A stretch of DNA of 64,000 bases, from positions 72,052 to 136,051 of the forward strand of contig JAEUQT010000002.1 in the NCBI GenBank assembly GCA_016789445.1, read 5' to 3'. Source of the DNA: a bacterium (GTDB taxonomy: Bacteria; Patescibacteriota; Minisyncoccia; Phycocordibacterales; UBA2100). The number at the start of each line of letters is the position of its first letter. Within the stretch, counting starts at the first letter, position 1. Of this stretch, positions 377 to 38,699 are shown piece by piece. A model generated the notes under the pieces. That model worked only from the letters and a program-made list of their open reading frames with translations, was not told the origin of the DNA and ran no database searches. A program made the position numbers and the translations under genes.

Positions 377-1474
377 TTGAGGGCGCGCCTGGCGCGCCTT
401 CTTCTTTTTCTATACAGTTTGGCGATGCAATCCCCCAAGCGTGTGGCCGTGGTCGGCGGCGGTATTTTCGGTTCGACTGCGGCGATTCATGCAGCGCGCG
501 CTGGGCACGAGGTACATCTCTTCGAGGAGAAACCCGCACTTCTGCAAGCGGCCTCCGGCATCAATCAGTATCGTCTCCATCGTGGCTATCACTATCCACG
601 CAGCTCGGATACCGCGCGATCAGCGCGTGATTCCGAATCCTCATTCCGTAGTGAGTATGGGAAATCGGTGATCGGTGGAGGACGGAATATCTATGCCATC
701 GCTCGGGAAGACACGTTTGTTGATGCGCGGGCGTTCCTCGAATTCTGCCGCGCACATGATCTTGCGTATACCGAATTGCCGATCGATCAGTACTGCGATC
801 CGGAGAATATCGATCTCGTGATTGAGGTCGAGGAATCGTGGATGGATCCCCACACGCTTCGCGAAGATATTACAGAGAAGCTGCGAGAGGTTGGCGTGAG
901 TGTGCATCTCGGCTCCCGAGCAACACATGAAATGCTTGATTCATTCGAGACCATCATCATCGCGACGTACGCGCACCTCAATGAACTCATTCCTGGCGAG
1001 CACCATCGCGAGTATCAGTTCGAGGTGTGCGAGAAGCCGGTAGTACGCGTACCGGGATTCGCCGACTTGGGTATCGTCGTCATGGATGGTCCTTTCATGT
1101 GTGTCGATCCGTGGGGGAAGAGCGGTCTGCATGTGATGGGGAACGTCGTGCATGCGATCCATGCAACGAATACCGGGAAAACGCCGGTTATTCCCGAGGC
1201 GATCCTCCCGCTCCTCAACAACGGCCTGATCGAGAATCCGCCACTCTCCAATTTTGAAGCATTTATCGAGACGGGCAGGCGTTATATACCCGGACTCAGG
1301 CATGCGGAGCATGTCGGTTCGCTCTTTACGATACGTACCGTCCTTCCGCGGATGGATGCAACGGATGCGCGCCCGACGATCGTGTCCAAGCTTTCCGATC
1401 GTCACATCCGCATCTTCTCGGGGAAGATCGGGAATTGCGTCGAAGCGGCAAAAGAAGCGGTTAGGCTTATCTGA
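377..1474 (+). CDS. FAD/NAD(P)-binding oxidoreductase
   Basis: 365-aa ORF with an N-terminal dinucleotide-binding motif VAVVGGGIFGSTAAIHAARAGHEVHLFE. The true start is probably the internal Met near 425 (MQSPKRVAVVGGG). Confidence 0.55.
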   Translation: MRARLARLLLFLYSLAMQSPKRVAVVGGGIFGSTAAIHAARAGHEVHLFEEKPALLQAASGINQYRLHRGYHYPRSSDTARSARDSESSFRSEYGKSVIGGGRNIYAIAREDTFVDARAFLEFCRAHDLAYTELPIDQYCDPENIDLVIEVEESWMDPHTLREDITEKLREVGVSVHLGSRATHEMLDSFETIIIATYAHLNELIPGEHHREYQFEVCEKPVVRVPGFADLGIVVMDGPFMCVDPWGKSGLHVMGNVVHAIHATNTGKTPVIPEAILPLLNNGLIENPPLSNFEAFIETGRRYIPGLRHAEHVGSLFTIRTVLPRMDATDARPTIVSKLSDRHIRIFSGKIGNCVEAAKEAVRLI

Positions 1475-2319
1475 GAAGTTCGTGGATTTCGAGGATGCGT
1501 GCGCCGAAATCGCCGGCGGTAACAGGCGTGGGGCCGCCGTGTACGGCGTGTAAGAACGCACGGATTTCTCGCGTGAGCGGTTCTTCTTCTGAGTGAAAAA
1601 CAGGTTCATCGTTACGAGTAAGCTCAGCACCATTCCAAACGAGAGTATCACCATTCGCGAGCGATGCGGTGATGGTATGCGAGCGTTCCTCTGAAAGGCG
1701 GTCGATGCGCGAGACGAATTTGCAATCGGGATACGAAAGAGTTGCTTCAATGCGATCGCACGCGGTCTCGCCGGATTCGCGGTGCGTAATTACGCCGGAT
1801 TGCGGCATGCCGAAAAGGTCGTAGCCCAGTGCGAGGTGATGGGTGAGGAGATTGGATTCGATGGATTCGGTGAAGGTGCCGTGTTTTTTCCAGACACATT
1901 CGATGCGGAGTGGTTTCTCCTCTTTCAGGATTCGTTTCAATTCCTGATAGACCGGATGGTAGAGAAAGATATAACCCGTCATGAGTATAAGGTTTTTCTC
2001 CTTCGCGAGGTGGGCGAGTGCATATGCTTCTTCAGAACTCCCCGCGAGAGTCTTCTCACAAAATACGTGCTTGCCGGCCTCAAGAGCACGGCGGGTCATC
2101 TCACCATGCGTGGCGATGGGGGTGGTGATTGCGACGGCGCTGATGGAGGTGTCTGCAAGGATCTCCTCGACGGTCTGATGTTTCGCCTCGAAAAAGGTGG
2201 GGGAACTCTCTTTGGTTGCGAAGCTGACGAAGTCCGACTGTGTATGGAGTTCGCGGGCGACGTTTGTGCCCCAGCGGCCGGCCCCGATAAGTGCTGTCTT
2301 GATTGGGTGCGTCACCGGT
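1467..2319 (-). CDS. Gfo/Idh/MocA-family NAD(P)-dependent oxidoreductase
   Basis: Rossmann motif IKTALIGAGRWGTNVARE at the N-terminus and an EKTLA-containing core. The start is placed at the GTG preceding THPIKTALIG; the longer ATG-initiated ORF (to 2480) would overlap the neighbouring divergent gene. Confidence 0.5.
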
Positions 2320-2351
2320 ATACTATGCGTGACACCTCTATCGAAGGCAAT

Positions 2352-3470
2352 ATGAAAATCCTCCTCACGACTGGCATCTTTTTCCCGGACGTCGGCGGCC
2401 CGGCGACGCATGTCCAGAAGATCGCTGAACACTTCCATTCGCTCGGCTGGCAGGTGAGCGTCGTTGCGTTCGGCGATCATACAGGAGACGAGAAATATCG
2501 TGTATTGCGTGCGAGCAGGAAGTACGGGAAGCTCGTGTCATGGGCGCTCTATGCGCTCGCGATCGCGCGAGAATCCCTCCGACATGATGTGATCTACGCA
2601 TTCGATCTCACGACCGCAGGCGTACCGTCGGCGTTCTTTGCGCGTCTGTTGCGAAAGCGATTCTTGTTGCGCATCGGAGGTGATCCTATCTGGGAGCGAG
2701 TTGTCGAACATGGTGAGCGGTTTGTGCCGATGCGGGCGTACTACGAGCAGGGACTTTTTAAAGTAGATCGACCGCGCCTCTTTCGCACGATTCGACGTGT
2801 GGTGCAGTCTGCGGAGACTATCGTGACCTACAACGAATTTCTCAAAGAGATCTATGTGACGCACTACGGTGTTCCAGCGGATCGCGTGCGCATCATCAGA
2901 AATCCCTTCCCGACGCGTACAGTATTTTCGCGAGAATCAGGCACCTTCACCTTTCTCTTCGCCGGCCGTTTCGTCTCGTACAAGAATCTGCCTGTGGTGC
3001 TTCAGGCATTTACAAAAGTCAGCGGGAAACATCCCGAGGCTCGGTTGGTGCTCATCGGTGACGGACCGGATCGTGAACTCATTGCAAAGGAGGCGGCATC
3101 TCTCGGAGAGCGAATCGAGATCCTACCGAAGATGGATCAGCAATCGCTCTTTGCACGCATCGATGCATCATCCGTTGCGCTTGCTCCGGCGCTCTCCGAA
3201 TTCAATCCGAATTTCATCCTTGAGAGTCTGGCGCATGGAAAACCCGCCATCATCAGCCGCGACAACGGGCTTTCGGTACAGCTTCCGGGGTATCTTCAGT
3301 TCGATCCGCTTAATGCCGACTCCATGCAGGCGGTAATGGAGTCGCTCTTCGATACCGAAACCTATGAGAAGGCGTTGCGCGATGTGGCTGCGCTACCGAC
3401 TGACCAGACGTGGGAGAAAGTCGCCGAGGAGCATGCGCATATTGCGCAGGGTGGGGGAAACGTGGTGTGA
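2352..3470 (+). CDS. GT4-family (GT-B) glycosyltransferase
   Basis: Starts MKILLTTGIFFPDVGGPATHV, the typical GT4 N-terminus. The C-terminal half carries a GT4-like nucleotide-sugar binding region. The upstream part of the 1782-3470 ORF is an antisense overlap and is not used. Confidence 0.65.
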   Translation: MKILLTTGIFFPDVGGPATHVQKIAEHFHSLGWQVSVVAFGDHTGDEKYRVLRASRKYGKLVSWALYALAIARESLRHDVIYAFDLTTAGVPSAFFARLLRKRFLLRIGGDPIWERVVEHGERFVPMRAYYEQGLFKVDRPRLFRTIRRVVQSAETIVTYNEFLKEIYVTHYGVPADRVRIIRNPFPTRTVFSRESGTFTFLFAGRFVSYKNLPVVLQAFTKVSGKHPEARLVLIGDGPDRELIAKEAASLGERIEILPKMDQQSLFARIDASSVALAPALSEFNPNFILESLAHGKPAIISRDNGLSVQLPGYLQFDPLNADSMQAVMESLFDTETYEKALRDVAALPTDQTWEKVAEEHAHIAQGGGNVV

Positions 3471-3506
3471 TTTGATACCCTCGGCAAACCCCGCTAGAAT
3501 GCGCCA

Positions 3507-5438
3507 ATGCGGGTATTGGTACTCTCTACCGACCGGAATGCCTTTGAAGAATCAAGCGCCGTTACGCGGCGTTTGCGCATGCAGGCGCGCACCGTCGAGC
3601 GCATGGACGTGTTGGTCCCTCATGGGCCCCGTCAGGTCATCCAGATCGCCGGGAACGCCTCGGTTCGCGGCTTCGGTTTAGGTCGCGTTTTGGGGGCATT
3701 TCGGGCCATTGCCGCGGGCTCTCGGGTGCAGCGTCCGGATGTCGTCTCGGCGCAGGACCCCTTCTTCACGGGACTTATCGCTTGGGTCATCGCACGCCTG
3801 CGCGGGAGCCGGTTGCATGTCCAGATACATACCGATCTCTTTGATGCGCAGTTTGCCGGACATTCGTTTGGCAGCCGCCTGAAGGTTCTTCTGGCGCGAT
3901 TCGTCCTGGCTCGTGCGGACGCGGTGCGCGCGGTCTCGAACCGTATCGCCCAGTCACTCGTTGAGCGCGGTTTCAATGCGCCGTCGGTTCTCCCGGTTTT
4001 CATTGATCTCGAGGCACTGCATAAAGCGGAAGCGATCAATCGTCGCGAACGCTATCCTGATTTTACGAAAGTAGTTTTGGTGGTTTCGCGGCTTGAGTCA
4101 GAAAAGAATGTCGCCGGCGCAATCCGTGCATTCGCGGAAATCGCGAACGCGGATTCCGGTGCGGGCCTCGTCATTGTCGGCAGTGGCAGCGAGCGCGCCT
4201 CACTTGAACATCTTGTTAAAGAGCTTGGTATCGAGAAGAAGGTGGTATTCGAAGGTGCGCAAGATCCGTTTCCGTTCTACAAAGCGGCCGATCTCCTCAT
4301 GCTCACGTCGCACTATGAGGGATACGGACTCGTGGTGGTTGAAGCACTCGCGGCAGGATGTCCGGTCGTCTCGTACGATGTCGGATTCGCGAAAGAGGCG
4401 GGCGCCGTCATTGCGTCGCCGGAAGAGCTTCCGCGTGTCGCGATCGCGATGCTTTCGGAAGGGAAGCGGAGCAAACTGATGCTCGATCTTCCGAACGAAG
4501 CGGAGTATCGCGATATGTGGTATTCGGACATCTCATCGTCGGGGAAAGTAGAGCGACGTCAGGGTGGCCAGAAGCCGTCTTCGGAACTCGTCATCGGCTA
4601 CGTGGGGCAGGGATTCATTGGGAAGAATTACGCGGATGAATTCGAGAGTCGCGGATTTACCGTGGTGCGCTATGCGCTTGAAGAGCCGTATCGTGCGAAC
4701 AAAGAGAACATCAAGGAGTGCGACATCGTCTTCATTGCGGTGCCGACGCCGACGACACCTGAGGGCTTCAGCGATGCGATCGTCCGGGACGCTGTGTCGC
4801 TCGTCGGCGATGGGAAGATCGCGATCATCAAATCGACGATGCTGCCGGGAATGACCAATACGATCCAAGCAGCGTATCCCACCAAGATCGTGATGCATTC
4901 GCCGGAATTCCTGCGCGAGGCGACGGCTGCATATGATGCCGGACATCCGGATCGGAACATCATCGGTATCTGCGCCGATACGCCGGAGAATCGTGCGGCG
5001 GCTCAGAAGGTGCTCTCGGTACTTCCGCCTGCACCGTTCGAGCTCATCTGCTCCGCTGTTGAAGCTGAGATCATCAAATACGCCGGCAACAATTGGCTCT
5101 ATCTCAAGGTCGTCTACATGAACATGCTGTATGACCTCACGCAGAAGCTCGGCGGCAAGTACGACGCGGTGCGTGATGCCTTCGCCGCTGATCCACGCAT
5201 GGGACGTTCTCACTTGGATCCGGTACACCAGAGCGGACACGGCGGTCCTGCGGGGCGCGGTGCGGGTGGGCACTGCTTCATCAAGGACTATGCGGCGTTC
5301 CGACATTTGTATGAACAGATGTTCCCTGAGGATCGTGCAGGCATCGAAGCACTGAAGGGAATGGAAGAGAAGAACAAGAAGCTGCTTCGCGATTCCGGGA
5401 AAGACCTCGATCTCCTGGACGGAGTGTACGGGAAATAA
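3507..5438 (+). CDS. Fusion protein: N-terminal GT4 glycosyltransferase + C-terminal UDP-glucose/GDP-mannose dehydrogenase-family NAD-binding and central domains
   Basis: A single 643-aa ORF. The first ~350 aa look GT4-like (EGYGLVVVEALAAGCPVVS). The remainder contains the NAD-binding motif IGYVGQGFIGKNYA and the catalytic-Cys motif GGHCFIKD typical of UDP-glucose 6-dehydrogenase-family enzymes. The C-terminal UDP-binding domain appears absent. Confidence 0.55.
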   Translation: MRVLVLSTDRNAFEESSAVTRRLRMQARTVERMDVLVPHGPRQVIQIAGNASVRGFGLGRVLGAFRAIAAGSRVQRPDVVSAQDPFFTGLIAWVIARLRGSRLHVQIHTDLFDAQFAGHSFGSRLKVLLARFVLARADAVRAVSNRIAQSLVERGFNAPSVLPVFIDLEALHKAEAINRRERYPDFTKVVLVVSRLESEKNVAGAIRAFAEIANADSGAGLVIVGSGSERASLEHLVKELGIEKKVVFEGAQDPFPFYKAADLLMLTSHYEGYGLVVVEALAAGCPVVSYDVGFAKEAGAVIASPEELPRVAIAMLSEGKRSKLMLDLPNEAEYRDMWYSDISSSGKVERRQGGQKPSSELVIGYVGQGFIGKNYADEFESRGFTVVRYALEEPYRANKENIKECDIVFIAVPTPTTPEGFSDAIVRDAVSLVGDGKIAIIKSTMLPGMTNTIQAAYPTKIVMHSPEFLREATAAYDAGHPDRNIIGICADTPENRAAAQKVLSVLPPAPFELICSAVEAEIIKYAGNNWLYLKVVYMNMLYDLTQKLGGKYDAVRDAFAADPRMGRSHLDPVHQSGHGGPAGRGAGGHCFIKDYAAFRHLYEQMFPEDRAGIEALKGMEEKNKKLLRDSGKDLDLLDGVYGK

Positions 5439-5441
5439 GCT

Positions 5442-6473
5442 ATGCGACTTCTTGTCGTGACACAGGTGGTCGATCGGAACGATTCGTTCCTCGGTTTTTT
5501 CCATCGCTGGCTCGAGGAACTCGCGACTCACTACGAACACATTCATGTCATCTGCCTCAAAGAAGGCGAGCATGCGCTGCCTGAGAACGTTACAGTGCAC
5601 TCGTTAGGCAAAGAAGGCGGAGAGTCCCGATGGAAGTACCTCACCAATTTTTTCCGATATGTATGGCAGCTGAGTCATGAATACGATGCGGTCTTCGTGC
5701 ACATGAATCAGGAGTATGTGCTTCTTGCCGGCTGGCTCTGGAAGCTGATGGGGAAGTGCATCTATCTGTGGCGTAATCACTATGCAGGCGGATTCCTTAC
5801 GGATGTTGCAGCGATGTTCGCTACCAAAGTGTTCTGCACATCAGAACATTCATATACGAGGAAGTACCGTAAGACCGTGGTCATGCCGGTCGGCATCGAC
5901 ACGACGCACTTCACGCCGCACGGCGAGAGGGTGCCGCATTCGATCCTCTCGCTCGGACGCATCGCGCCATCAAAGAATATCGAGGTGATACTGCAGGCAC
6001 TGAGGACCCTAAAGGATCAGGGTGCAGAATTCACTGCGTCGATCTATGGGGATTCATTGCCGCAGGATCGTGCGTATCACGACAGCCTGCGTGCGTATGT
6101 CGCTGATCAGGGCCTCAAGAGTCGTGTGCGTTTTTGTCCGGGAGTTCCGAATACCGAAACGCCGAAAATATTTGCCGCATATCAAATTTTTGTAAATGCG
6201 AGTGCGAGCGGCATGTTCGATAAGACGATCTTCGAAGCGGGAGCGTGCGGCGCGCTCTCGCTTGCGTCTAGTAAGGACTACGCACAGGATGCAGATCCAC
6301 GACTCGTCTTTCGCGAGAAGGACGCGCAGGATCTTGCACAGAAGCTTGCTGTGATCCTCTCGCTCGATGCACCGACCCTGAGCTCTCTCCAGCGTGCATC
6401 GGAGAAGAACATTGCAGCGCATAGTCTTTCAGCTCTCGTCAATCGGGTGGTATCAGAAATCTGTGTATCATAA
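5442..6473 (+). CDS. GT4-family glycosyltransferase
   Basis: 343 aa with GT-B features (MRLLVVTQVVDRNDSFLGFF N-terminus; C-terminal region with FEAGACGA). It starts 4 bp after the previous stop. Confidence 0.6.
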   Translation: MRLLVVTQVVDRNDSFLGFFHRWLEELATHYEHIHVICLKEGEHALPENVTVHSLGKEGGESRWKYLTNFFRYVWQLSHEYDAVFVHMNQEYVLLAGWLWKLMGKCIYLWRNHYAGGFLTDVAAMFATKVFCTSEHSYTRKYRKTVVMPVGIDTTHFTPHGERVPHSILSLGRIAPSKNIEVILQALRTLKDQGAEFTASIYGDSLPQDRAYHDSLRAYVADQGLKSRVRFCPGVPNTETPKIFAAYQIFVNASASGMFDKTIFEAGACGALSLASSKDYAQDADPRLVFREKDAQDLAQKLAVILSLDAPTLSSLQRASEKNIAAHSLSALVNRVVSEICVS

Positions 6474-6479
6474 ATTCAC

Positions 6480-9179
6480 ATGCGCTTCCTGTATTTCGGT
6501 ATCTACGATCCTGACTTCTCGCGCAATCGGATCTACATGCGCGCACTCCGCGCTGCGGGTCACGAGATTGTGGAATGTCGCGATACTTCTCCGGGGCCGA
6601 TGAAATACGCGCGCCTCGCATGGCGGCTACTCTCTCTTCGTGGGACATATGACGCGCTCATCGTCGGGTATCCAGGGCATGTGACCGTGCCGATCGCGCG
6701 ATTATTTTCGCGTGCGCCGGTCATTGTCGATTTTCTTGGCTCGTTCTCTGATGCGCTTGCACATTCGCATGGTGCGTCGCGATTTAAAAAATGGATCTTT
6801 ACGATCGTGGACTGGCTCGCTATCTGGTGTGCGGACCGTGTTCTTGTCGAGAGTGAGGCGCAGAAGAACTACCTCATTAGTCGTTTCGGTCGTGCAAAGT
6901 CATATGCGGTGATCTATACGGGCGTCGACGAATCGGTCTTCTTCAAAGAAAAAGGAAAGGAGCAGAATCAGAAATTCGCGGTGCTTTTCCGTGGACGACT
7001 CACGCCCGAATCAGGGATTATGCATATCCTTGAGGCGGCGCACCTGCTGCAATCTCAGAGTGATATTGAATTCCGTATTGTCGGATATGGGCACTTACTC
7101 AAGCACGTAGAGCAGGTGATTCACGAGCAGAATCTGACGAATGTACAGCTCATCTCTACACATCTCTCCTTCGACGAGATGCGAGGGTATATTTCTGATG
7201 CAGACGTAAGTCTCGGTCAGTTCGAAAATAACCCGCGACTCGATCGTACTATCCCGCATAAGGCATTCGAATCGGCGGTCATGGGCATCCCGTACATAAC
7301 CGGGTATTCTGATGCGGTACGCGAGATTTTCAGTGGCGCAGCATTTTGTATGCTTGAGAAGGCGAATCCTCGTGCGATTGCCGACGCCATCATCGCGCTC
7401 AAAAATGATCCCGAAAAAAGGAGACAGCTGGCGGTGAATGCCCGCAGCGAGTACGAGAAACACGCCTCGCAATCAGCGATTATGCGAAAAATCATGACTA
7501 GTATTCCTTCTCTGCACCATCGTGCGATGTATCTCTTACCACTTCTCCTTGGCGTATTTGCGCTGATCCGTCTGCTGGGGCTTGATCTTCCGTACCATCA
7601 AGATGAATGGAAAAACGCGCAAATGGTGCGCGTAGGTATCGAGGGCGGGCTCTCAGCGCACCCACCGCTCATGGAATTGATCTACGTCTGGAGCGGGGCG
7701 ATTTTCGGAGCGGATAATCTGCGTCTCATGCCGTTGATATTCGGCGTGCTCTCGGCGTGGCTTCTCTATATCGTGATGCGACGCCGCGTAAGTGCTTCAG
7801 CAGCGGCGTGGGCAACCGGACTGTATGCGATATCCATGTATGGCGTCTTGGCGTCCCTCATGCTGGATATGGACGGTACGATACTGCCTGCCTTCTTTTT
7901 AGCGGCTGTGTATGCCTATGGCCGCTTTTTTGATGCCGAGACGACTCGCGGCAAACTAGGCTGGCTTGGCGCGCTCTTCGGCGCGGTGGCACTTGGCTTT
8001 ATGACGAAGCTTAGCTTTGTACTCGTGCCGGCCGCCATCCTTCTGGATTATCTCTGGCACATGCGGAATCGATTTACGGCGCGGTTCGTTGCGAGCGCGG
8101 CCGGACTTTTTGTTCTCGGGGCTGGTGTTTTGGCGGTGGCACTCATTCTTGCGGACAAGCTCATGCCGGCGTTCGATATCGGCCCGACTATCTCACATGC
8201 GACGTCCTACATCCGTTTTGAAGGAAGGGGATATATGCAGATCGTCATCCAGGCAGTGAAGGCACTGTTCTACCTCTCGCCGCTTCTCATTCTCCTTCCG
8301 TTTCTTGCGACGAAAGAGCAGCTGCAGAAAAACAGCATCTTCATTATCTATGGTCTTCTCGGATCCCTCTTCTATTTCATTCTGTTTGATTTCTCGCAGG
8401 GAGCTTTGGATAAATACCTCATGTACACGATCGTGCCGCTTGTTGCTCTTTCAGGAACGGTGCTTGCCGCGGTATTCACGAATCGTCCTGAAGCCAGCCG
8501 GCGAACCGGCTTCCTTGTGGGGGTGGGGCTCAGTATCGTACTTATTGCCCTCGCACTTCTGCCACACACGGTGATACCGCTCTATCCAAAGACGGCGTGG
8601 CCTTCAGCGGTTGTATCGGGGCACTGGAATATCCTCATGCCGTTTACTGGCGGCAACGGCCCCCTCGGCTTCTACATGTCATTTCTTTTCATGGCGGTAG
8701 CGTTTCTGGTATCAGCGCTTCTCGTGCTTATGGCGAGAATCTCGTCGCCATTCCGATCGAGTGCGGTCACGGCACTGGTCGTCATCGGTGTCTCGTATAA
8801 CCTTCTCTTCATCCAAGAATACTTTTGGGGCGGTATGTATGGCAGTTCCGCGGACGTTCTTGCTGAAAGCGTAGCATTCATCGCTCAGTCGGATGCGCCG
8901 AGCATTATTACGCATGCCGATGCTGGTGCCTATGAACTGAATACGATCGGGAAATATGCGGGCCGATTCTATGCGGTACCTTCATATGTGACAGAGCATC
9001 GTGAGCGATTCGCACAGCATGATGGATGGTACCTCGTCGTCGATGTGCCACTCTTGAACGAAGGCGGGTTCTATCGCTCTTTCTTCAACACCTGCACGCC
9101 GCTTTTCGAGACGCACTCTGGCGTCATCAAGGGGTACGTGTATGATTGTGCCGACAGCGATCCGTACGCGATACCGTAA
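6480..9179 (+). CDS. Fusion: N-terminal GT-B glycosyltransferase + C-terminal polytopic GT-C-like (ArnT/PMT-like) membrane domain
   Basis: 899 aa. Residues ~1-340 are a soluble GT-B-like domain (MRFLYFGIYDPDFSRNRIY...). From ~345 on there are more than 10 hydrophobic helices plus a C-terminal soluble region, resembling GT39/ArnT-type glycosyltransferases. Confidence 0.5.
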   Translation: MRFLYFGIYDPDFSRNRIYMRALRAAGHEIVECRDTSPGPMKYARLAWRLLSLRGTYDALIVGYPGHVTVPIARLFSRAPVIVDFLGSFSDALAHSHGASRFKKWIFTIVDWLAIWCADRVLVESEAQKNYLISRFGRAKSYAVIYTGVDESVFFKEKGKEQNQKFAVLFRGRLTPESGIMHILEAAHLLQSQSDIEFRIVGYGHLLKHVEQVIHEQNLTNVQLISTHLSFDEMRGYISDADVSLGQFENNPRLDRTIPHKAFESAVMGIPYITGYSDAVREIFSGAAFCMLEKANPRAIADAIIALKNDPEKRRQLAVNARSEYEKHASQSAIMRKIMTSIPSLHHRAMYLLPLLLGVFALIRLLGLDLPYHQDEWKNAQMVRVGIEGGLSAHPPLMELIYVWSGAIFGADNLRLMPLIFGVLSAWLLYIVMRRRVSASAAAWATGLYAISMYGVLASLMLDMDGTILPAFFLAAVYAYGRFFDAETTRGKLGWLGALFGAVALGFMTKLSFVLVPAAILLDYLWHMRNRFTARFVASAAGLFVLGAGVLAVALILADKLMPAFDIGPTISHATSYIRFEGRGYMQIVIQAVKALFYLSPLLILLPFLATKEQLQKNSIFIIYGLLGSLFYFILFDFSQGALDKYLMYTIVPLVALSGTVLAAVFTNRPEASRRTGFLVGVGLSIVLIALALLPHTVIPLYPKTAWPSAVVSGHWNILMPFTGGNGPLGFYMSFLFMAVAFLVSALLVLMARISSPFRSSAVTALVVIGVSYNLLFIQEYFWGGMYGSSADVLAESVAFIAQSDAPSIITHADAGAYELNTIGKYAGRFYAVPSYVTEHRERFAQHDGWYLVVDVPLLNEGGFYRSFFNTCTPLFETHSGVIKGYVYDCADSDPYAIP

Positions 9180-9182
9180 TCT

Positions 9183-15713: not shown

Positions 15714-15773
15714 GTAGTGCTCTAATGGCGAATTATGGTGCTTGTCATCCGGCCGCGAAGGAAATTTTCATGG

Positions 15774-18519: not shown

Positions 18520-18540
18520 GATCTAGCGCTCATTTGTTAC

Positions 18541-22365: not shown

Positions 22366-22367
22366 AA

Positions 22368-24983: not shown

Positions 24984-25059
24984 AGCGGAAGAGTGCAATG
25001 CATCACGAAAGAATGCAAGGTGAAATGGACGACGAGGGCGAGCTCTGTATACTGGCACG

Positions 25060-31444: not shown

Positions 31445-31446
31445 AC

Positions 31447-32541
31447 ATGAAGCCTACTGTGCATCTCGCGTATACGGCTCCTTTTGGACCCACACTGGTA
31501 CGGCGGGGGATCGATAAGGCATTGCGTCTTGCGCATCTTCCGCCGCTCTATCGAAGTGGTCAGGATTTCTTAATACCGTGGCAGCATCCGATTCGTGCGC
31601 CGCACAGCATCACGTACCAACTCTTGCACGCGATCCGGGATCGAGGATACCCTGTGCGACTCTATAGTCTGTATGAGCACGGAGTGGCACCAATGAAAAA
31701 AGGGGATATATTCATCGGCCAGCCGCTGCCTAGTAAGGGAATGGGGCAGAGGCGATCGCTTGACGACGATCCGCTTTCAGTTACTTCGCGAACGTTGCGC
31801 GAATTTCCCAGTCCAAGAAATTTTATACTGATGCCATACGCTCACGATACTGAATATTCCACGTTCGCGAAAAAGCTTATCGCTGAAAATAATGCTACTG
31901 GAGGAGGTGCGATATTCATCGGCGGCGATATCTGGCAGCGGGACTGGGAAACGAAATCGCCGTATGCGGATCTCGGTCACTTGCGAAAAACACATATAAC
32001 TGCAATGGGTATCGATCCGGCCGAATATCCTCTTGTAAAAAAAAGCTTCAATCAGAAAGGAAAGCGACGATATCTATATATAGGGCATACAGCCTGGTAT
32101 AAGAACACCGCTGAATTAGAGAGAATTGCAGAACGAATGCCTCAGTTTGAATTTGGACATATCGGAGGAGGGTCGGTACGAGGGTGGAAAAAGATAGCGG
32201 ATTTCGCGACTCTGACACCTGCATACATGGCTCGTCTTGCTAAGGAATATGACATATTTGTTACTGTGAGTACCGCTGATCCTCAAGCTACTACTATCGT
32301 TGAACAGATGTGTTTCGGATTGGCGGTTGCGTGCACCTCTGAGACCGGGTATGAGTATGACACAGTCACGCGATTGTTTACCGCTGATACGGATGCGAAC
32401 GTGCGAATACTCACTGCTCTCCAAGACTTGGAAGAAGACGAGCTCATTTCATTAGCTCGGCAGAACCGCGAAATTGTTGAAAAAAAACATAGCTGGCAAC
32501 AGTTCGTGAGCTGCGTTCTCGATTTTGCTGGAGTGGCTTAG
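31447..32541 (+). CDS. Hypothetical protein, possible glycosyltransferase
   Basis: 364 aa starting at MKPTVHLAYT, 3 bp after the previous stop. The C-terminal half loosely resembles a GT-B C-domain (YLYIGHTAWYKNTAEL). Confidence 0.35.
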   Translation: MKPTVHLAYTAPFGPTLVRRGIDKALRLAHLPPLYRSGQDFLIPWQHPIRAPHSITYQLLHAIRDRGYPVRLYSLYEHGVAPMKKGDIFIGQPLPSKGMGQRRSLDDDPLSVTSRTLREFPSPRNFILMPYAHDTEYSTFAKKLIAENNATGGGAIFIGGDIWQRDWETKSPYADLGHLRKTHITAMGIDPAEYPLVKKSFNQKGKRRYLYIGHTAWYKNTAELERIAERMPQFEFGHIGGGSVRGWKKIADFATLTPAYMARLAKEYDIFVTVSTADPQATTIVEQMCFGLAVACTSETGYEYDTVTRLFTADTDANVRILTALQDLEEDELISLARQNREIVEKKHSWQQFVSCVLDFAGVA

Positions 32542-32583: not shown

Positions 32584-33186
32584 ATGACTGCCGACAGGAA
32601 TACAGCTTTCATCAATTCCGCAATGAAGAGCGTAGGCAAGAGGAAAGGTGTGGTTCTGGATGTTGGAGGAGGGGAGCGGTTCGGGAAATGGCTCTCACGA
32701 TACAAGAGTGAATTTGAGGGTTGCGATTACAAGACGTTCGATTACGATGCATCGACGGGGGCTGACATCGTCGGGGACATCCACAAGATGCCGATCGCTG
32801 ATGGGTTCTGTGATGCGATCATTTGTTCCTCTGTTCTTGAGCATGTGCGAGATCCTCTGACTGCAATGTCGGAGCTTCGACGCATCCTTAAAGACGGCGG
32901 GAAGATATTCCTGTATGTCCCTTCGATATACCCCTATCACGCACGCAAAGGGCACTATCCTGATTACTGGCGGTTCTTTGATGACACACTGTTGGAGCTC
33001 TTCAAGGGATTTTCTGATGTGCGAATCGAGAAGCGAGGAGGATATTTCTTCGCGCTCTCGTTCTTTGTCCCGATGCAGCACAAGATGCGATGGTTCTTGA
33101 ACCCTGTCGCTGACCTTCTCGATCGGCTATTTCAGACTGAAAAGCGCACAACCACCTCCGGATATTACGTATTGGCTACGAAGTAG
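32584..33186 (+). CDS. Class I SAM-dependent methyltransferase (Methyltransf_11-like)
   Basis: [11 protein letters not shown] motif [10 protein letters not shown] and [10 protein letters not shown] downstream motifs. 200 aa. Confidence 0.55.
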
Positions 33187-34108
33187 CGGTTTCAGCGAAC
33201 CATCGATAGGTATCGACGAGGCCTTGAGGAAGCGCAATGGCGTGGCGCCAGCCGAGGGAGTGTATTTTGCTAACATCGAGGCGTTTGCGAGGGGTGCCGT
33301 CGGGTTTTGAGGTGTCCCAGACGATATCGCCATTGTAGCCAATCGTGGTCTTGATGAGTTCGGCCAATTCCTTGATGGTCACGTCTTCGCCGGTGCCGAC
33401 ATTGATGATCGAAGGATCGTTGTAGGTCTCCATAAGAAAGACGCAGGCACTGCCCATATCGTCGACATGGAGGAATTCGCGCATGGGGGCGCCGCTGCCC
33501 CAGACAGTGACTGAGGGCGCATTCGACACTTTTGCTTCATGGAAGCGGCGCAAAAGGGCGGGGAGGACGTGGGCGCGTTCGAGGTCGAAGTTGTCGTTCG
33601 GGCCGTACAGGTTGGTCGGCATGACGGAGATGAAATTCGAACCGTACTGGCGACGGTAGGCATTACACATCTCAATGCCGGCGATCTTGGCGATCGCGTA
33701 GGCGCTATTGGTATCCTCGAGTGGGCCGGTCATGAGGTATTCCTCCTTGATCGGCTGGGGGGCCATCTTCGGATAGATACAGGAGCTGCCGAGGAAAAGG
33801 AGTTTTTTCACGTCGCTTGCATGGGATTGATGGATGACGTTGGTCTGCACGACGAGGTTCTCGCGGATGAAATCAGCGGGGTAGGTATTGTTGGCCATGA
33901 TGCCGCCCACGCGTGCCGCCGCCAGAAAGACATACTCAGGCTTTTCTTTCTCGAAGAAGTCGCGTACTGCCTCGGCGTCCATGAGTTCAAGCTCCGCATG
34001 GGTTCGAGTAATGATATTGGTATATCCCTTGCGCGTCAGTTCACGCACGATGGCGGAGCCCACAAGGCCGCGATGACCGGCCACGAAAATCTTTGAATTC
34101 TTTTCCAT
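33176..34108 (-). CDS. fcl: GDP-L-fucose synthase (GDP-4-keto-6-deoxy-D-mannose 3,5-epimerase/4-reductase)
   Basis: [34 protein letters not shown] and LYGPNDNFD are highly characteristic of Fcl/WcaG. The start is taken as [11 protein letters not shown]. Confidence 0.85.
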
Positions 34109-34109
34109 G

Positions 34110-34582
34110 CTATTTGAGGGCACGCAGGGCACCTTCGATGCGTGCTTTCACGTTCGGATGCAGGGAAGGGTCGTCGATCGAAAACCACTGCATCTCGCTG
34201 TGTTGGCTATCCGCATCCGCTTTCTCATCGGCGAGCGTACAGGCGAAGTATACATCCACGGTATGGTAATTCACGCCGTCGAATATCGATGCAGGATTGA
34301 TCTCGTTGATAATGCCGCTGAAGACGAGGTCAGAAGCAGTGCGATCAAGACCGAGTTCTTCTTTGGCGATGCGGCAAGCTGCTTGGACGAGGTCTTCGTT
34401 CTTGTAGAGGCGACCACCGAAGCTGTAGAACTTGCCGGCGTAGGGTTCGTTGGTGCGCTTGCCGAGGAGGATCTTGGTCCTGTCGGGATTAAAAAAGAGA
34501 ACATCCACCGTCACGACGGGGAAGTTCTCCATAAGGCGTCGGTATTCTTCAAGAGGGACGCGGCCGACGATCGGGAATTCGC

Positions 34583-34586
<4 letters not shown>
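34110..34586 (-). CDS. gmm: NUDIX hydrolase, GDP-mannose mannosyl hydrolase-like (Gmm/WcaH)
   Basis: 158 aa with a Nudix box ([23 protein letters not shown]). Its position between gmd and fcl is as in colanic-acid-type operons. Confidence 0.7.
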
Positions 34587-35620
<1,034 letters not shown>

Positions 35621-35711
35621 GGTGGTAGCCAGTGCATGGTAGCTGTGGCGCCCGCATTCCGCAAGGAAAACCTCTTGCATCTCAAGTGGGTGAGGGGCAT
35701 ACTTCCGTATC

Positions 35712-36503
35712 ATGAAGAAAACGAAGACCGTCTCTGAGAAGTGGGTTGCTGTCTCGGGAGGGTTCGATCCTATTCATATCGGGCATGTGCGCATGATGCA
35801 GGCGGCCCGCAAGCTGGGGGATAGGCTCCTCGTCATCCTCAATAACGACCACTGGCTGCGCGACAAGAAGGGTTTTGCCTTTATGCCGCAGAAGGAGAAG
35901 GTGGAGCTCCTCAAATCATTCCCGTTCGTCGACAAGGTGGTGCTCACCGATCACAAGCCAGGCGACCAAGATCGCAGTGTCTCGCGCACACTCCGCAAGG
36001 TGAAGCCGCACATCTTCGCGAACGGCGGCGATCGCGGCAAGGGCAATACGCCGGAGATGGATGTCTGCAAGGATCTCGGTATCACGATGCGTTTCAATGT
36101 CGGGAAGGGCGGTAAAGTGCAGTCTTCCTCGTGGATGATCAATGCCTCAAGTCGTGAGGTGCGCCGGAGCGTGCGCCCCTGGGGCGAGTTCTACGGATGG
36201 GACAGCGGTCAGGGCTGGTATCTGAAGACGCTCTACGTGAATCCGAATAGCCGCCTCTCGCTCCAGTATCACCATCACCGCTCCGAGCGTTGGGTCTTGG
36301 TGCAGGGCGATGCGACCGCGGTCACGATCGAAAAGGGAAAGGAGAAGAAGACCAAACTCAAGGTGGGTGAGACCTTCATCGTGCCGAAAAGAATGCCGCA
36401 CCGCCTCACTTCCAAGAATGGCGGTACGCTCGTGGAGGTCGCGGTCGGCAATTTTGATGAAAACGACATCGTACGCCTCCAGGACGACCACGGTCGCGTG
36501 TAG
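35712..36503 (+). CDS. Fusion: cytidylyltransferase-like nucleotidyltransferase + C-terminal cupin (mannose-6-P isomerase type II C-domain-like)
   Basis: The N-terminus has [12 protein letters not shown], the HxGH nucleotidyltransferase motif. The C-terminus has [20 protein letters not shown] cupin motifs. It is divergent from gmd. Confidence 0.5.
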
Positions 36504-36515
36504 TACAATCTTCCT

Positions 36516-38699
36516 ATGGCGCTGGAGAAATTCCTTCGCGGCGTAGCTCTGACGGGAGTATTCGCGCTCCCGTTCGTCGTGTTGTACGTCGCGAATTCCA
36601 TGTTCTTCCCGTTCATTACGGGGAAGAACTTCGCATTCCGCATCATTACCGAGATCGTCTTCGGCGCGTGGCTTGCGCTCGCCTTCATCCGATCCGAATA
36701 CCGACCGCGTAATTCGTGGCTCCTCTGGGCATTCGCGGCATTCGTCGCAGTAATTGGTATCGCTGATATCTTCGGCGTCTACCCAATGAAGAGTATCTGG
36801 AGCAACTACGAGCGCATGGATGGCTGGGTGACCCTGGTGCACCTCTTTGCCTACTTCGTCGCAGCAACCTCGATCCTCAATACGGAGAAACTCTGGCGGG
36901 CATGGTGGCACACCTCGCTCGCAGTATCCGTCGTCGTGGCGTTCATCGGTATCTTCCAATTCATGGGTTTTGTCGGCATCAATCAGGGCTCGACCCGTTT
37001 GGATGCTCGCCTCGGCAACGCAACCTACGCGGCCGTCTACATGCTCTTCCATGTCTTTATCGCGGCGCTCTTTATGGCGCGGCTGTGGGCAGAGAAGGCG
37101 AAGGATAAGGGCTTCTACACCTGGCTCTACGCTTCGATAATTGCCGTCGATTCGTTCGTGCTCTTCTTCTCGGGTACACGCGGTGCCATCCTCGGCATCT
37201 TGGGCGGTGCAATGCTTTCCGCACTCATCCTTATCGTACTTGCGCCGCGTTCGCGTGTCGCATGGCGTGCGGGAACGGCGATCGGCATCTTCCTCGTCGT
37301 CGCGGGCGGTTTCTGGCTCGTGAAGGACCAGGCGTGGGTCCAGAAGATCGAGCCCTTGCACCGTATCGCCACCTTGAATAACGACGGCATCACCATCGCG
37401 CGCGTCCTTAACGCGCAGATGGCGTGGGAAGGCTTCAAGGAGCGCCCGATCCTGGGGTGGGGCCAAGAGAACTACGCGGTTGTCTTCGATAAGAATTATC
37501 TTCCAGCAATGTATGCGCAGGAGCAGTGGTTTGATCGTACGCACAACATCGTGATGGACTGGCTCATCGCCGGCGGCATCTTGGGTCTCTTGGGCTATCT
37601 CTCGCTCTATCTTTTCTCGCTTCTCATGGTCTGGCGATCAGGTGCGTTTGCGCCGTATGAAAAGGCGCTCCTCACCGGTTTCTTTGCGGCGTATTTCTTC
37701 TATCTCGTATTCACGTTCGATAATCTCCTCAGCTATCTTCTCTTCGCATCGATGCTTGCGTATATCACCGTGCGAGCGCAATCGGTGCAGCCACGAGAAC
37801 GCATCGCGGGGCCAGTTGATCCGAAGTATCTTCCGATCGTGGCGGTTGTCGTGCTTATCGGTACGTGGGGCATCGGCTGGTATGCAAATGCAAGCATGAT
37901 CAGTGCGAATAGAACGCTCATCCAGGCGATGATGCCACAGCCGCAAGGCGCTGAACGCAACCTGCAGCTCTTCCAGGAGGCGCTCGCGAAGCCGCGCGCC
38001 GGGCATCAGGAGATTCGTGAACAGCTCGCCCAAGCGGCAATGAGTGCGGTCGGTACCGAAGGTATCAGCAACGACGTGAAGCAGCGTTTCCTTCAGCTGG
38101 CGGTCAGCGAACTCGAAAAGCAGATGCAAGAGGCTCCGCTTGCGGCGCGACCGCCGTTCTTCCTCGGCGTCCTTCTTAATCGCGTTGGTGCATATCCGGA
38201 GGCAAAGATCGCGCTCGAGAAAGCACAGGCGCTCTCGCCGCAGAAGCAGGGAATCATGTTCGAGCTTGGATTGAATGCGGAGGCGCGGGGCGCAAAGGAC
38301 GAGGCGCTCGCGATCTTCAAGAAAGCATACGATCTCGCACCTGCGTCGCATGAGGCAAGCATCAATTACGCAACGGCGCTTCTTCGTGCCGGAAAGGATG
38401 CCGAAGCTGATGAGGTATTGAAGCCCATTATCGAGAAGGGGGAGACGAACGATCAGCGCATCGCGGCGGCGTATGCAGGGCGAAATCGTTTCGATACGAT
38501 CGTCGAGATCTGGACTCGATATGTAGAAGTGAATCCCACGGTTCCTGATGCGCGATTCGTACTTGCCGGCGCATACTACTCTGCGGGCAATAAAGAGAAA
38601 GCGATCGAAGTTTTGGAGGAAACGAAGCGCGCCATTCCGTCTGCTGCAGCGCAGGCCGATGGTCTCATTCAGCAGATTCGCACGGGGAATACTCAGTAG
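36516..38699 (+). CDS. O-antigen ligase/Wzy_C-domain polytopic membrane protein with C-terminal TPR repeats
   Basis: 727 aa with about 12 TM helices. It carries the Wzy_C-like motif GTRGAILGILGGAM and a large external loop. The C-terminal ~250 aa are TPR-like helical repeats (EAKIALEKAQALSP..., KDEALAIFKKAYDLAP...). Confidence 0.55.
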   Translation: MALEKFLRGVALTGVFALPFVVLYVANSMFFPFITGKNFAFRIITEIVFGAWLALAFIRSEYRPRNSWLLWAFAAFVAVIGIADIFGVYPMKSIWSNYERMDGWVTLVHLFAYFVAATSILNTEKLWRAWWHTSLAVSVVVAFIGIFQFMGFVGINQGSTRLDARLGNATYAAVYMLFHVFIAALFMARLWAEKAKDKGFYTWLYASIIAVDSFVLFFSGTRGAILGILGGAMLSALILIVLAPRSRVAWRAGTAIGIFLVVAGGFWLVKDQAWVQKIEPLHRIATLNNDGITIARVLNAQMAWEGFKERPILGWGQENYAVVFDKNYLPAMYAQEQWFDRTHNIVMDWLIAGGILGLLGYLSLYLFSLLMVWRSGAFAPYEKALLTGFFAAYFFYLVFTFDNLLSYLLFASMLAYITVRAQSVQPRERIAGPVDPKYLPIVAVVVLIGTWGIGWYANASMISANRTLIQAMMPQPQGAERNLQLFQEALAKPRAGHQEIREQLAQAAMSAVGTEGISNDVKQRFLQLAVSELEKQMQEAPLAARPPFFLGVLLNRVGAYPEAKIALEKAQALSPQKQGIMFELGLNAEARGAKDEALAIFKKAYDLAPASHEASINYATALLRAGKDAEADEVLKPIIEKGETNDQRIAAAYAGRNRFDTIVEIWTRYVEVNPTVPDARFVLAGAYYSAGNKEKAIEVLEETKRAIPSAAAQADGLIQQIRTGNTQ

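Follow-up and report, generated by a model that had tools for sequence, protein, structure and literature searches.

Two kinds of described system come closest to the locus presented here. ABC (ATP-binding cassette) transporter-dependent O-polysaccharide systems with capped chain ends and a carbohydrate-binding domain on Wzt, such as those of Escherichia coli O8/O9a and the WzmWzt exporter of Aquifex, share with it a Wzm/Wzt pair, a C-terminal extension on Wzt, cytoplasmic family 4 glycosyltransferases (GT4), methyltransferases that could act in capping and a WaaL-type (Wzy_C) gene. In Gram-positive rhamnose-rich wall loci, for instance those for the streptococcal group A carbohydrate and rhamnose-glucose polysaccharide (GAC/RGP) and the enterococcal epa locus, a conserved backbone goes together with a variable decoration block and an ABC exporter, and side chains are added outside the cell by way of a family 2 glycosyltransferase (GT2) that makes polyprenyl-phosphate sugars, a GtrA-type flippase and a membrane-bound glycosyltransferase of the GT-C type. 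We find features of both at positions 1 to 38,699 of a 64-kb stretch of DNA (contig JAEUQT010000002.1, positions 72,052 to 136,051; hereafter the window) from a member of the Patescibacteria, or Candidate Phyla Radiation (CPR). To our knowledge no surface-glycan structure is known for any of these bacteria, and in the literature we found no characterised surface-glycan locus from CPR or Kaiserbacteria, and none like this one. It has been stated in general terms that Patescibacteria have numerous genes for surface modification and that their phages possess genes of nucleotide-sugar metabolism, gmd among them; these episymbionts are thought to rely on surface contact with a host, with phage pressure as a shaping force (PMC12911398).

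The region is a real, gene-dense cluster for making, exporting and decorating a cell-surface glycan, and its genes predict that this glycan is heavily methylated and contains branched sugars. On balance, we read it as the main surface-glycan locus of a Kaiserbacteria-like patescibacterium, presumed to have a single membrane, in which a backbone exported by an ABC transporter would be decorated with C-methyl deoxyhexoses through three polyprenyl-phosphate routes, each consisting of a GT2 followed by a GT-C. Genes were taken from a listing of open reading frames (ORFs), and every plausible gene in the window was then scanned against Pfam and NCBIfam, using equivalog cutoffs. About 38 genes stand back to back in the locus, essentially gap-free and at a coding density of about 100%, and neither tRNAs nor Rfam families were found in the window. 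The locus spans at least 38.7 kb and is truncated at the window's left edge: positions 1 to 177 are the C-terminus of another GT4, so that it extends further left, and position 377, where a preliminary description of this DNA had it begin, is not its left boundary. Genomes in this group are about 1 Mb in size, of which the locus would make up several percent.

The scans agree with the inventory of four GT4, three GT2 and three GT-C enzymes and a Wzm/Wzt pair given in the preliminary description, and the domain searches it had proposed as a check support its methyltransferase and glycosyltransferase assignments. It had counted at least seven methyltransferases, and we find seven such domains, six of them firm and one marginal (Methyltransf_24). 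Both enzymes of the GDP-fucose operon, Gmd and Fcl, score above their equivalog cutoffs, and the two 422-residue Zn-ribbon paralogues that had looked like C-methyltransferases match solved NDP-sugar 3-C-methyltransferases over their full length. As far as gene content goes, its prediction of methylated, C-branched deoxy sugars therefore has a sound basis. Nearly all assignments behind its statement that almost every ORF is glycan-related were likewise confirmed, with the qualification that the first ORF (377 to 1474, DAO family) is tied to glycans by position alone. Absent from it were a Zn-dependent alcohol dehydrogenase/E1alpha/E1beta trio (19336 to 22365), a Nudix gene between gmd and fcl, a minus-strand Gfo/Idh/MocA gene and the GT4 at the left edge. 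Two of its ORFs are replaced. A 562-residue ORF at 1782 to 3470, taken for a GT4, gives way to the minus-strand Gfo/Idh/MocA gene (1467 to 2315) and a 381-residue GT4, which probably starts at 2325, after the gene calls in L031 (loci from other assemblies are referred to by L numbers). An ORF at 34107 to 34727 on the plus strand matches no family and is spurious, the real gene being the Nudix gene on the opposite strand (34110 to 34586).

The left block of the locus contains the following genes, including three of the fused proteins.

1 to 177, plus strand: 3′ end of an upstream GT4 gene; the frame-1 translation ends GT4-like and is collinear with a 418-residue GT4 of L031.
377 to 1474, plus strand: DAO-family FAD oxidoreductase (PF01266, 54.6 bits), 75% identical in L031 and absent from the distant L033.
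1467 to 2315, minus strand: Gfo/Idh/MocA NAD(P) oxidoreductase (PF01408, 64 bits), a 282-residue gene in L031 and L032.
2325 to 3470, plus strand: core GT4 (PF00534, PF13439), with orthologues of 381 residues in L031 and 379 in L033.
3507 to 5438, plus strand: GT4 (BshA/MshA-like) joined to the NAD-binding and central domains of a UDP-sugar 6-dehydrogenase, without the UDP-binding C-terminal domain (Pfam, Foldseek).
5442 to 6473, plus strand: core GT4 (Pfam), with identities of 76% in L031, 46% in L033 and 49% in L040.
6480 to 9179, plus strand: cytoplasmic GT4 joined to a GT-C (PMT_2) with about 10 transmembrane segments (Pfam); 893-residue orthologues in L031 and L032.
9183 to 10595, plus strand: SAM methyltransferase (Methyltransf_23) joined to a GT2 resembling polyprenyl-phosphate hexose synthases (AglJ-like, 99.8 bits, below cutoff); orthologues of 469 to 470 residues in L031 and L037.

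Frameshifts or assembly errors had been raised as a possible source of five fused proteins in the locus. All five recur in independent assemblies, and they are thus not such artefacts. L037, from another sequencing run, is 96.4% identical to the window and collinear with it over positions 10383 to 31333, with gene order kept, and its ORFs match the 470-residue methyltransferase-GT2 fusion, the 636-residue GtrA-GT-C fusion and the two 422-residue C-methyltransferases. L034 gives the same picture over 35036 to 39319, and two further metagenomes (L031 and L032) contain the fusion of GT4 to UDP-glucose dehydrogenase (GT4-UGDH, 643 residues), the GT4-GT-C fusion (893 residues) and the methyltransferase-GT2 fusion (469 residues).

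Two of the five, GT4-UGDH and a nucleotidyltransferase-cupin protein, are lineage-wide and have no characterised counterpart. Of the 120 protein clusters (at 90% identity) listed, more than 100 have the GT4-UGDH architecture, with identities of 46 to 99% and a near-constant length, and the fusion is 57 to 76% identical across genomes labelled Kaiserbacteria, Parcubacteria and Paceibacterota; the nucleotidyltransferase-cupin architecture is present in essentially all of the 120 clusters listed for it (of 7093 matches). Named homologues of both, and of the E1alpha discussed below, come from Kaiserbacteria, Parcubacteria, Paceibacterota or Minisyncoccota. The GtrA-GT-C fusion is rarer. Apart from P0361, which is identical to the 636-residue protein of the window, it occurs in at least three other clusters at 50% identity (P0363, P0366 and P0368; 608 to 625 residues), most relatives being stand-alone GT-C proteins of about 480 residues.

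In GT4-UGDH, the GT4 half retains the E-x7-E motif. The dehydrogenase half has kept the Rossmann GxGxxG, the GGHCFIKD cysteine motif and the helix with the catalytic Lys and Asn; 48 homologues show no variation in the catalytic Cys, Lys, Asn and Asp or in two of the three glycines of GxGxxG. That half matches PF03721 (in part) and PF00984, the protein ending about 50 residues past the catalytic Cys, and the UDP-binding C-terminal domain (PF03720) was found neither in it nor in any of the 120 listed homologues. Foldseek places the N-terminal half with retaining GT4s of the BshA/MshA type and the C-terminal half with the first two domains of UDP-glucose dehydrogenases (3gg2 and 2q3e, over 310 to 323 columns). 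The dehydrogenase half is thus apparently catalytically intact, judging by its conserved residues, despite the absent nucleotide-sugar-binding domain. An AlphaFold2 model built on the 48-homologue alignment has two confident domains (pLDDT 86) joined by a disordered linker; with this linker and a pTM of only 0.55, it is uninformative as to the GT4 half taking the place of the absent domain.

The genes that would supply and modify sugars are spread over the remainder of the locus.

11363 to 11767, plus strand: cupin, candidate NDP-ketosugar epimerase/isomerase (PF07883, PF14667), 77% identical in the same module of L036.
11770 to 12465, plus strand: short SDR (short-chain dehydrogenase/reductase), candidate 4-ketoreductase (PF01370, 32 bits), 69% identical in L036.
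12482 to 13750, plus strand: predicted NDP-sugar 3-C-methyltransferase 1, made up of Zn ribbon, methyltransferase and C-terminal domain (PF08421, PF13489, PF08484), with full-length matches to 4rv9, 5t64 and 3ndi.
17794 to 18519, plus strand: TylF-like O-methyltransferase (PF05711, 86 bits).
22362 to 23102, plus strand: short PfkB kinase (246 residues), best match HldA heptose-7-phosphate kinase (TIGR02198, 104.7 bits against a cutoff of 345).
23106 to 23831, minus strand: FkbM-family methyltransferase (PF05050, 60.8 bits; TIGR01444 above cutoff).
23824 to 24273, minus strand: cupin, candidate sugar isomerase/epimerase, weakly similar to mannose-6-phosphate isomerase.
24285 to 24998, minus strand: HAD-IA phosphatase/mutase of the beta-phosphoglucomutase family (PF13419; TIGR02009, 78.9 bits, below cutoff).
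25060 to 25962, plus strand: SDR, best match ADP-glyceromanno-heptose 6-epimerase HldD (TIGR02197, 233.3 bits against a cutoff of 274.6).
25932 to 26462, minus strand: cytidylyltransferase-fold nucleotidyltransferase, best match heptose-1-phosphate adenylyltransferase HldC (TIGR02199, 168.7 bits against a cutoff of 181.5).
26546 to 27517, plus strand: Fcl-like SDR, epimerase/reductase (Pfam, NCBIfam), 76% identical in L031, where it lies beside a GtrA gene and the same GT2.
28179 to 29447, plus strand: predicted NDP-sugar 3-C-methyltransferase 2 (PF08421, PF13489, PF08484), with full-length matches to 4rv9 and TcaB9.
29449 to 30225, minus strand: probable class I methyltransferase (marginal Methyltransf_24; PF13578, 24.9 bits against a cutoff of 26.3).
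32584 to 33186, plus strand: class I methyltransferase (Methyltransf_11, 51.5 bits).
33176 to 34132, minus strand: GDP-L-fucose synthase Fcl (NF047922, 506.5 bits against a cutoff of 500).
34110 to 34586, minus strand: Nudix hydrolase resembling GDP-mannose mannosyl hydrolase (PF00293, 54 bits; NF011963, 57 bits against a cutoff of 146).
34583 to 35620, minus strand: Gmd (TIGR01472, 564.6 bits against a cutoff of 415).
35712 to 36503, plus strand: cytidylyltransferase-fold nucleotidyltransferase joined to a type-II mannose-6-phosphate isomerase cupin (PF01467, PF01050), candidate ManC analogue.

The order gmd-nudix-fcl is a classical one. Neither an NTP_transferase domain (PF00483) nor an RmlB-type 4,6-dehydratase was found in the locus by the Pfam scans, and with Gmd as the sole 4,6-dehydratase, GDP-4-keto-6-deoxymannose is the likely hub of deoxysugar supply. 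A canonical ManC would combine PF00483 with a phosphomannose isomerase (PMI) cupin; here the cupin PF01050 is present and is fused to PF01467 instead. The fused protein, whose gene lies head to head with gmd, has the HxGH motif of the cytidylyltransferase fold together with RPWG and [12 protein letters not shown], which we take to be motifs of type-II phosphomannose isomerases. We infer that it takes the place of ManC in this lineage.

The two C-methyltransferases, both of 422 residues and 37% identical to each other, match MtfC (4rv9) over about 410 residues with E-values of 1e-58 and 6e-59, as well as TcaB9 and KijD1, and Cys pairs are visible when the two are aligned with each other. Both are predicted to 3-C-methylate NDP-4-keto sugars. 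A counterpart of copy 1 in another locus shares 66% identity with it and only 38% with copy 2; the two are therefore old family members residing in separate modules and not a recent duplication. The other methyltransferases comprise TylF-like, FkbM-like, Methyltransf_23 (fused to a GT2), Methyltransf_11 and the marginal Methyltransf_24 proteins.

Export, decoration and ligation are represented by a further set of genes.

10598 to 11332, plus strand: soluble GT2, whose nearest solved relative is dolichol-phosphate mannose synthase (5mlz, 4.5e-18), then ArnC and GtrB.
13737 to 15647, minus strand: GtrA flippase-like domain joined to a GT-C (PMT_2), 636 residues (PF04138, 79 bits, whole profile covered; PF13231).
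15735 to 16550, plus strand: Wzm ABC-2 permease (PF01061, 71 bits).
16547 to 17797, plus strand: Wzt ATPase with a putative carbohydrate-binding-type C-terminal domain (PF00005, 83 bits; PF14524, 27.2 bits against a cutoff of 30.4).
27514 to 28179, plus strand: soluble GT2 resembling dolichyl/polyprenyl-phosphate hexose synthases (AglJ 99.7 bits and DPhHxTase 81.9 bits, both below cutoff; 5mlz, 1e-12).
30323 to 31444, plus strand: GT-C (PMT_2) with 6 transmembrane segments (PF13231, 40 bits), 47% identical in L036.
31447 to 32541, plus strand: weak GT-B-like protein (PF13524 and PF13692 below cutoff), 45% identical in L036.
36516 to 38699, plus strand: Wzy_C (O-antigen-ligase-type) membrane domain with about 11 transmembrane segments (PF04932, 66.3 bits against a cutoff of 31.7) and C-terminal tetratricopeptide (TPR) repeats.

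The Wzm and Wzt genes overlap. The best solved relatives of Wzt are 8dku/7k2t, followed by TarH/TagH and RfbE, and residues 54 to 377 align to the 404-residue full-length transporter chain of 7k2t/8dku, that is, beyond the ATPase domain; 7k2t is presumably the Aquifex WzmWzt structure with its carbohydrate-binding domain. Both stand-alone GT2s find dolichol-phosphate mannose synthase (5mlz) first and ArnC next, one of them also GtrB. The three GT-C domains match PF13231 at 40 to 43 bits, where the cutoff is 26, each with multiple transmembrane segments. The GT2 genes have C-methyltransferase modules as neighbours in the window and L036, and GtrA as a neighbour in L031. Taken together, the GT2 family matches and neighbourhoods, the three GT-C domains and the single GtrA suggest three Gtr-type routes using polyprenyl phosphate. 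The Wzy_C-TPR gene is the sole ligase-type gene found in the locus.

A module of a different kind lies to the right of the exporter genes and consists of the trio and a divergently transcribed partner.

18541 to 19305, minus strand: conserved protein without known family, the divergent partner of the trio, 44 to 50% identical beside the trio in L035, L036 and L040.
19336 to 20376, plus strand: Zn-dependent alcohol dehydrogenase (PF08240, PF00107).
20373 to 21332, plus strand: ThDP (thiamine diphosphate)-dependent E1alpha (PF00676, 222 bits; TIGR03182, 307 bits against a cutoff of 394).
21325 to 22365, plus strand: E1beta (PF02779, PF02780), 346 residues in L037.

E1alpha homologues at 63 to 79% identity are common in Patescibacteria, and the order alcohol dehydrogenase, E1alpha, E1beta is kept in five independent loci (the window together with L037, then L035, L036, L039 and L040). 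Neither E2 nor E3 was found in the window, in L037 or near the trio in the other four loci; the neighbours of the trio in the five loci are Wzm/Wzt, methyltransferase, GT2, GT4, GT9 or GT-C genes. In L035, L036, L039 and L040 the E1 genes bear pyruvate or acetoin dehydrogenase annotation and lie inside glycan loci; a search of the literature on CPR E1 genes found nothing specific. In antibiotic pathways, E1alpha/beta pairs add a pyruvate-derived two-carbon branch to NDP-4-ketosugars (PMC4802897). By analogy with these, the reading of the trio that we prefer, if with less than even confidence, is that it would add such a branch to an NDP-ketosugar, the alcohol dehydrogenase then reducing the acetyl branch; this is the least secure step of the scheme proposed below.

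The partner belongs to a family of about 250 residues encoded divergently upstream of the trio in every examined locus except L039 (window 18541 to 19305, minus strand; L035 8019 to 8837; L036 7870 to 8766; L040 7267 to 7980), with the invariant motifs HLGLGD..CHGIVR, HED..R and HVIDSSFMF.IDC. The window's member has no Pfam match at E up to 5, a three-sequence profile of the family had no match in the PDB, and a single-sequence AlphaFold model was unusable (pLDDT 36). The HLGLGD and DSSF motifs had made it a candidate GT9-like heptosyltransferase, an assignment that hhalign against two GT9 proteins did not support (probability 0.7%).

In the reading we favour for the whole locus, GDP-mannose would come from the nucleotidyltransferase-PMI cupin protein and be converted by Gmd to GDP-4-keto-6-deoxymannose, from which Fcl would make GDP-L-fucose. 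Two modules would lead to 3-C-methyl-6-deoxyhexoses, one with a C-methyltransferase, a cupin and a short SDR, the other with a C-methyltransferase and the Fcl-like SDR. The HldA/HldC/HldD-like set would activate a heptose-type sugar, and the trio would place a two-carbon branch on an NDP-ketosugar and reduce it, following the logic of AviB1/B2 and Plm8/9 for the addition and YerF for the reduction. Assembly of the backbone on a polyprenyl carrier would fall to the four cytoplasmic GT4s, with GT4-UGDH possibly bringing in a uronic acid; O-methyltransferases would modify or cap the chain, and Wzm/Wzt, with its putative carbohydrate-binding-type tail, would export it. Meanwhile the three soluble GT2s (of DPM1/ArnC/GtrB type) would load rare sugars onto polyprenyl phosphate, to be flipped by GtrA and attached outside the membrane by the three GT-Cs. 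The last step would be ligation of the product to a final acceptor by the Wzy_C-TPR protein.

Several observations weigh against this scheme. A phosphomannomutase (ManB) was not found by the Pfam scans in the 64-kb window, and neither was an initiating polyprenyl-phosphate sugar-1-phosphate transferase (PF00953, PF02397) in any of its ORFs, though the latter may be elsewhere in the genome. The solved 3-C-methyltransferases, as far as we know, act on dTDP-sugars. The best NCBIfam match of all three GT2 domains is ArnC, AglJ or DPhHxTase, below all cutoffs, and the three lack the transmembrane helices of GtrB and ArnC. Heptose activation, as put forward in the preliminary description, holds as a family-level resemblance only: HldA, HldC and HldD are the best matches of three genes, all under the equivalog cutoffs, no SIS domain (GmhA isomerase) was found in the window, and the HAD phosphatase belongs to the beta-phosphoglucomutase subfamily and is not GmhB. 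Finally, E1beta is followed by the short, HldA-like PfkB kinase in the window, in L037 and in L040 (60% identity), and a gene of the EEP family (PF03372) takes that position in L035 and L036, an arrangement that fits a role of the trio at the level of sugar phosphates as well as at that of NDP-sugars.

The destination of the product is where a first alternative arises. Within the Wzy_C family, ligases, polymerases and O-oligosaccharyltransferases cannot be told apart by sequence alone, and the Wzy_C-TPR protein might act as an O-oligosaccharyltransferase (like WsaB, PglL or TfpO) that moves a lipid-linked glycan en bloc to an S-layer protein, a pilin or a giant surface protein instead of to the wall or a lipid. 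Such protein O-glycosylation we consider rather unlikely, though well worth keeping in view: Wzy_C-TPR is the only ligase-type gene, no gene of the LCP family was found in the window, and the S-layer glycan clusters of Geobacillus combine Wzm/Wzt, a Wzy_C-type transferase and a methyltransferase-glycosyltransferase fusion. A protein rich in Thr, Gly and Ser with a single transmembrane segment, encoded 8 kb downstream, would also suit. Against this, the ambiguity of the Wzy_C family cuts both ways, S-layer and pilin genes were not identified in the window, and an LCP gene could lie elsewhere in the genome.

In the 3116-residue product of the downstream ORF (46483 to 55833, minus strand), Thr, Gly, Ser and Ala are abundant; it has one transmembrane segment (137 to 168), and its only Pfam match is a weak one to HTH_17 at the N-terminus. 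L001 and L002 contain partial relatives. The protein has the appearance of a giant surface protein and may be a target of glycosylation. The same layout, N-terminal HTH_17 and a single transmembrane segment, is seen in the protein encoded at 57802 to 58962 (plus strand), which in relatives lies beside gatB and is 57 to 61% conserved over its first 150 to 190 residues.

Comparison with relatives shows the locus to be a mosaic of a conserved backbone block, a swappable decoration and export block and a conserved ligase anchor. The left block, from the DAO gene to the methyltransferase-GT2 fusion (1 to 10595), has 50 to 87% protein identity in the close relative L031, and three of its core genes, two GT4s and GT4-UGDH, are also found in the distant Parcubacteria genome L033. 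L031 shares positions 1 to 10595 and 26546 to 28179 with the window and differs in between: from the methyltransferase-GT2 fusion to the Fcl-like SDR (about 10.6 to 26.5 kb) there are about 16 kb here and about 3.5 kb of other genes there. Decoration genes recur in sets, GT-C, GT2, cupin, short SDR and C-methyltransferase being contiguous in L036 at 43 to 77% identity to their counterparts in the window, and GtrA, Fcl-like SDR and GT2 contiguous in L031; L036 also carries Wzm, Wzt, FkbM-like, GT-C, GT-B-like and Gmd genes. GC content is 45 to 46% at 16000 to 20000 and 55 to 58% at both locus ends, a dip consistent with a separate history of the variable middle. At the right end, Wzy_C-TPR adjoins SecA in five relatives (L001 to L005), with 39 to 61% identity in Wzy_C-TPR. 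An exact-sequence search with the window's SecA gave no match. In a genome scan it is 83% identical to that of a Patescibacteria metagenome-assembled genome and 61 to 70% to those of Kaiserbacteria and Paceibacterota, and its next-best matches, at about 45 to 53%, are from Bacteroidota and Firmicutes. Together with the named homologues mentioned above, this places the source of the window in the CPR. The term "island" used in the preliminary description is accordingly only partly apt, the left third being a conserved core and the right end a conserved anchor.

Both flanks have features of their own. Upstream of the GT4 core, L031 (1 to 4573) and L033 (415 to 6222) have in common a block of TP_methylase, DUF4015, a homologue of TrwB/VirD4-like coupling proteins and a lamin-tail-domain protein, so that synteny across the class extends to the left flank of the locus as well. 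The gap of about 1 kb between Wzy_C-TPR and secA (38700 to 39760) has no credible ORF and no Rfam match; it contains a 44-nucleotide direct repeat in three copies (39062, 39225 and 39292) and several inverted-repeat arms of 17 to 19 nucleotides.

A mosaic of this kind could also serve two or more products, with the GT4 core making a lineage-wide, possibly essential wall polymer and the variable middle with Wzm/Wzt a strain-specific polysaccharide. The core proteins are indeed far better conserved than those of the middle (57 to 76% for GT4-UGDH), L031 keeps the core and has other genes at the position of Wzm/Wzt, and the GC content of 45% at 16 to 20 kb stands against 55 to 58% at the ends. 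However, the genes form an unbroken series in which stops and starts overlap and no housekeeping gene intervenes, there is a single exporter and a single ligase-type gene, and known loci with a conserved backbone and variable decoration, such as enterococcal epa, make one polymer. We therefore regard separate products as improbable, if by no means far-fetched, and retain a single decorated polysaccharide as the favoured reading.

For the trio, the rival to branching of an NDP-ketosugar is a reaction at the sugar-phosphate level, in which a two-carbon extension of an aldose phosphate from a 2-oxo acid, similar to those of DXS or transketolase, would give a higher-carbon or 1-deoxy ketose phosphate, to be activated by the PfkB, HAD and HldC-like enzymes. 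The HldA-like kinase directly after E1beta (in the window, L037 and L040) and the setting in L039, where the trio stands among SIS (GmhA-type), HldC-like and PfkB genes, two GT9 genes and five FkbM methyltransferases, make this a serious rival, to which the EEP-family gene at the same position in L035 and L036 and the weak similarity of E1alpha and E1beta to DXS and transketolase can be added. We know of no precedent, however, for such an extension by an E1alpha/beta pair of the pyruvate dehydrogenase type, and the trios of L035 and L036 have no activation genes within 10 kb. Gmd is nearby in both the window and L036, and a documented role of E1alpha/beta pairs is the branching of NDP-ketosugars (PMC4802897). 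On this evidence chain extension seems unlikely, and the addition of a branch to an NDP-ketosugar remains our preference.

That the genes are the deoxysugar cassette of a glycosylated secondary metabolite, of macrolide or orthosomycin type, is very improbable. In favour of this reading, antibiotic pathways are the best-known setting of sugar 3-C-methyltransferases, of TylF- and FkbM-like methyltransferases and of E1alpha/beta branch enzymes. We reject it because no polyketide synthase, nonribosomal peptide synthetase, terpene or other aglycone genes were found in the 64 kb, while Wzm/Wzt, three GT-Cs, GtrA and a Wzy_C ligase-type protein are present and many loci of Patescibacteria contain these gene sets too.

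Carried to its furthest, the analysis allows a joint reading in three parts, which as a whole we hold to be quite doubtful: that Patescibacteria, in a glycan chemistry particular to the lineage, load C-branched sugars (3-C-methyl and two-carbon) onto polyprenyl phosphate and attach them outside the cell by GT-C enzymes and not from cytoplasmic nucleotide sugars; that GT4-UGDH oxidises C6 after transfer, so that uronic acid would arise at the level of the lipid or polymer and not from UDP-glucose; and that the "pyruvate dehydrogenase E1" of CPR genomes serves glycan tailoring and not central metabolism. As to the last of these, the present loci suggest that E1alpha/beta genes in CPR are not automatically pyruvate dehydrogenase and that metabolic reconstructions may misread them. 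For chemical work on such cells, the predicted sugars to look for are fucose, 3-C-methyl-6-deoxyhexoses, O-methyl sugars and a heptose-type sugar, and the locus separates the lineage-wide parts of the pathway from those that vary between strains.

Individual modules have their own counterparts among described systems. The C-methyltransferases share with TcaB9, MtfC and KijD1 three domains including an N-terminal Zn ribbon, full-length similarity, and cupin and SDR ketoreductase partners; they differ from these in their surface-glycan setting, in having Gmd as the only 4,6-dehydratase and in being present as two copies in separate modules, each adjoining a polyprenyl-phosphate-type GT2 and a GT-C. 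The GDP-based virenose route of Coxiella lipopolysaccharide is a related system. In gene content, the trio is similar to AviB1/B2 and Plm8/9 (with YerE/YerF as functional analogue; PMC4802897) in having E1alpha and E1beta without E2 or E3 among sugar genes, with an adjacent reductase, and is set apart by its occurrence in Patescibacteria surface-glycan loci, its link to a PfkB kinase and the partner protein of about 250 residues. The ADP-heptose pathway (GmhA, HldA/HldE, GmhB, HldC and HldD) provides the best NCBIfam matches of three genes, whereas here the scores are below cutoff, an SIS isomerase is missing, a HAD-IA protein stands in place of GmhB and the kinase is short at 246 residues. 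The polysaccharides of mycobacteria offered for comparison in the preliminary description (3-O-methylmannose polysaccharides, MMP, and 6-O-methylglucose lipopolysaccharides, MGLP) do resemble the locus in having glycosyltransferases beside sugar O-methyltransferases. These polymers are cytoplasmic and need no exporter, and the analogy fails at this point since Wzm/Wzt, GtrA, three GT-Cs and a ligase-type protein imply an extracytoplasmic product.

At the level of the whole locus, it departs from ABC-dependent O-polysaccharide systems in the presumed single membrane, the absence of lipid A-core and of a WecA/WbaP-type initiator in the window, the TPR repeats on the ligase and the extensive decoration by GT-C enzymes. 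It departs from GAC/RGP and epa in that it has no rml genes and no LCP ligase was seen, in its sugars, which would derive from GDP-mannose and carry C-methyl and possibly two-carbon branches, and in its fused functions (GT4 with GT-C, GtrA with GT-C, methyltransferase with GT2). The closest analogues are the Gram-positive wall-polysaccharide loci, the logic being that of an ABC-transporter-dependent polysaccharide with Gtr-type decoration. Every domain comes from a known family; what is new with respect to these systems is the host lineage, the combination of sugar chemistries and the two lineage-wide fusion enzymes.

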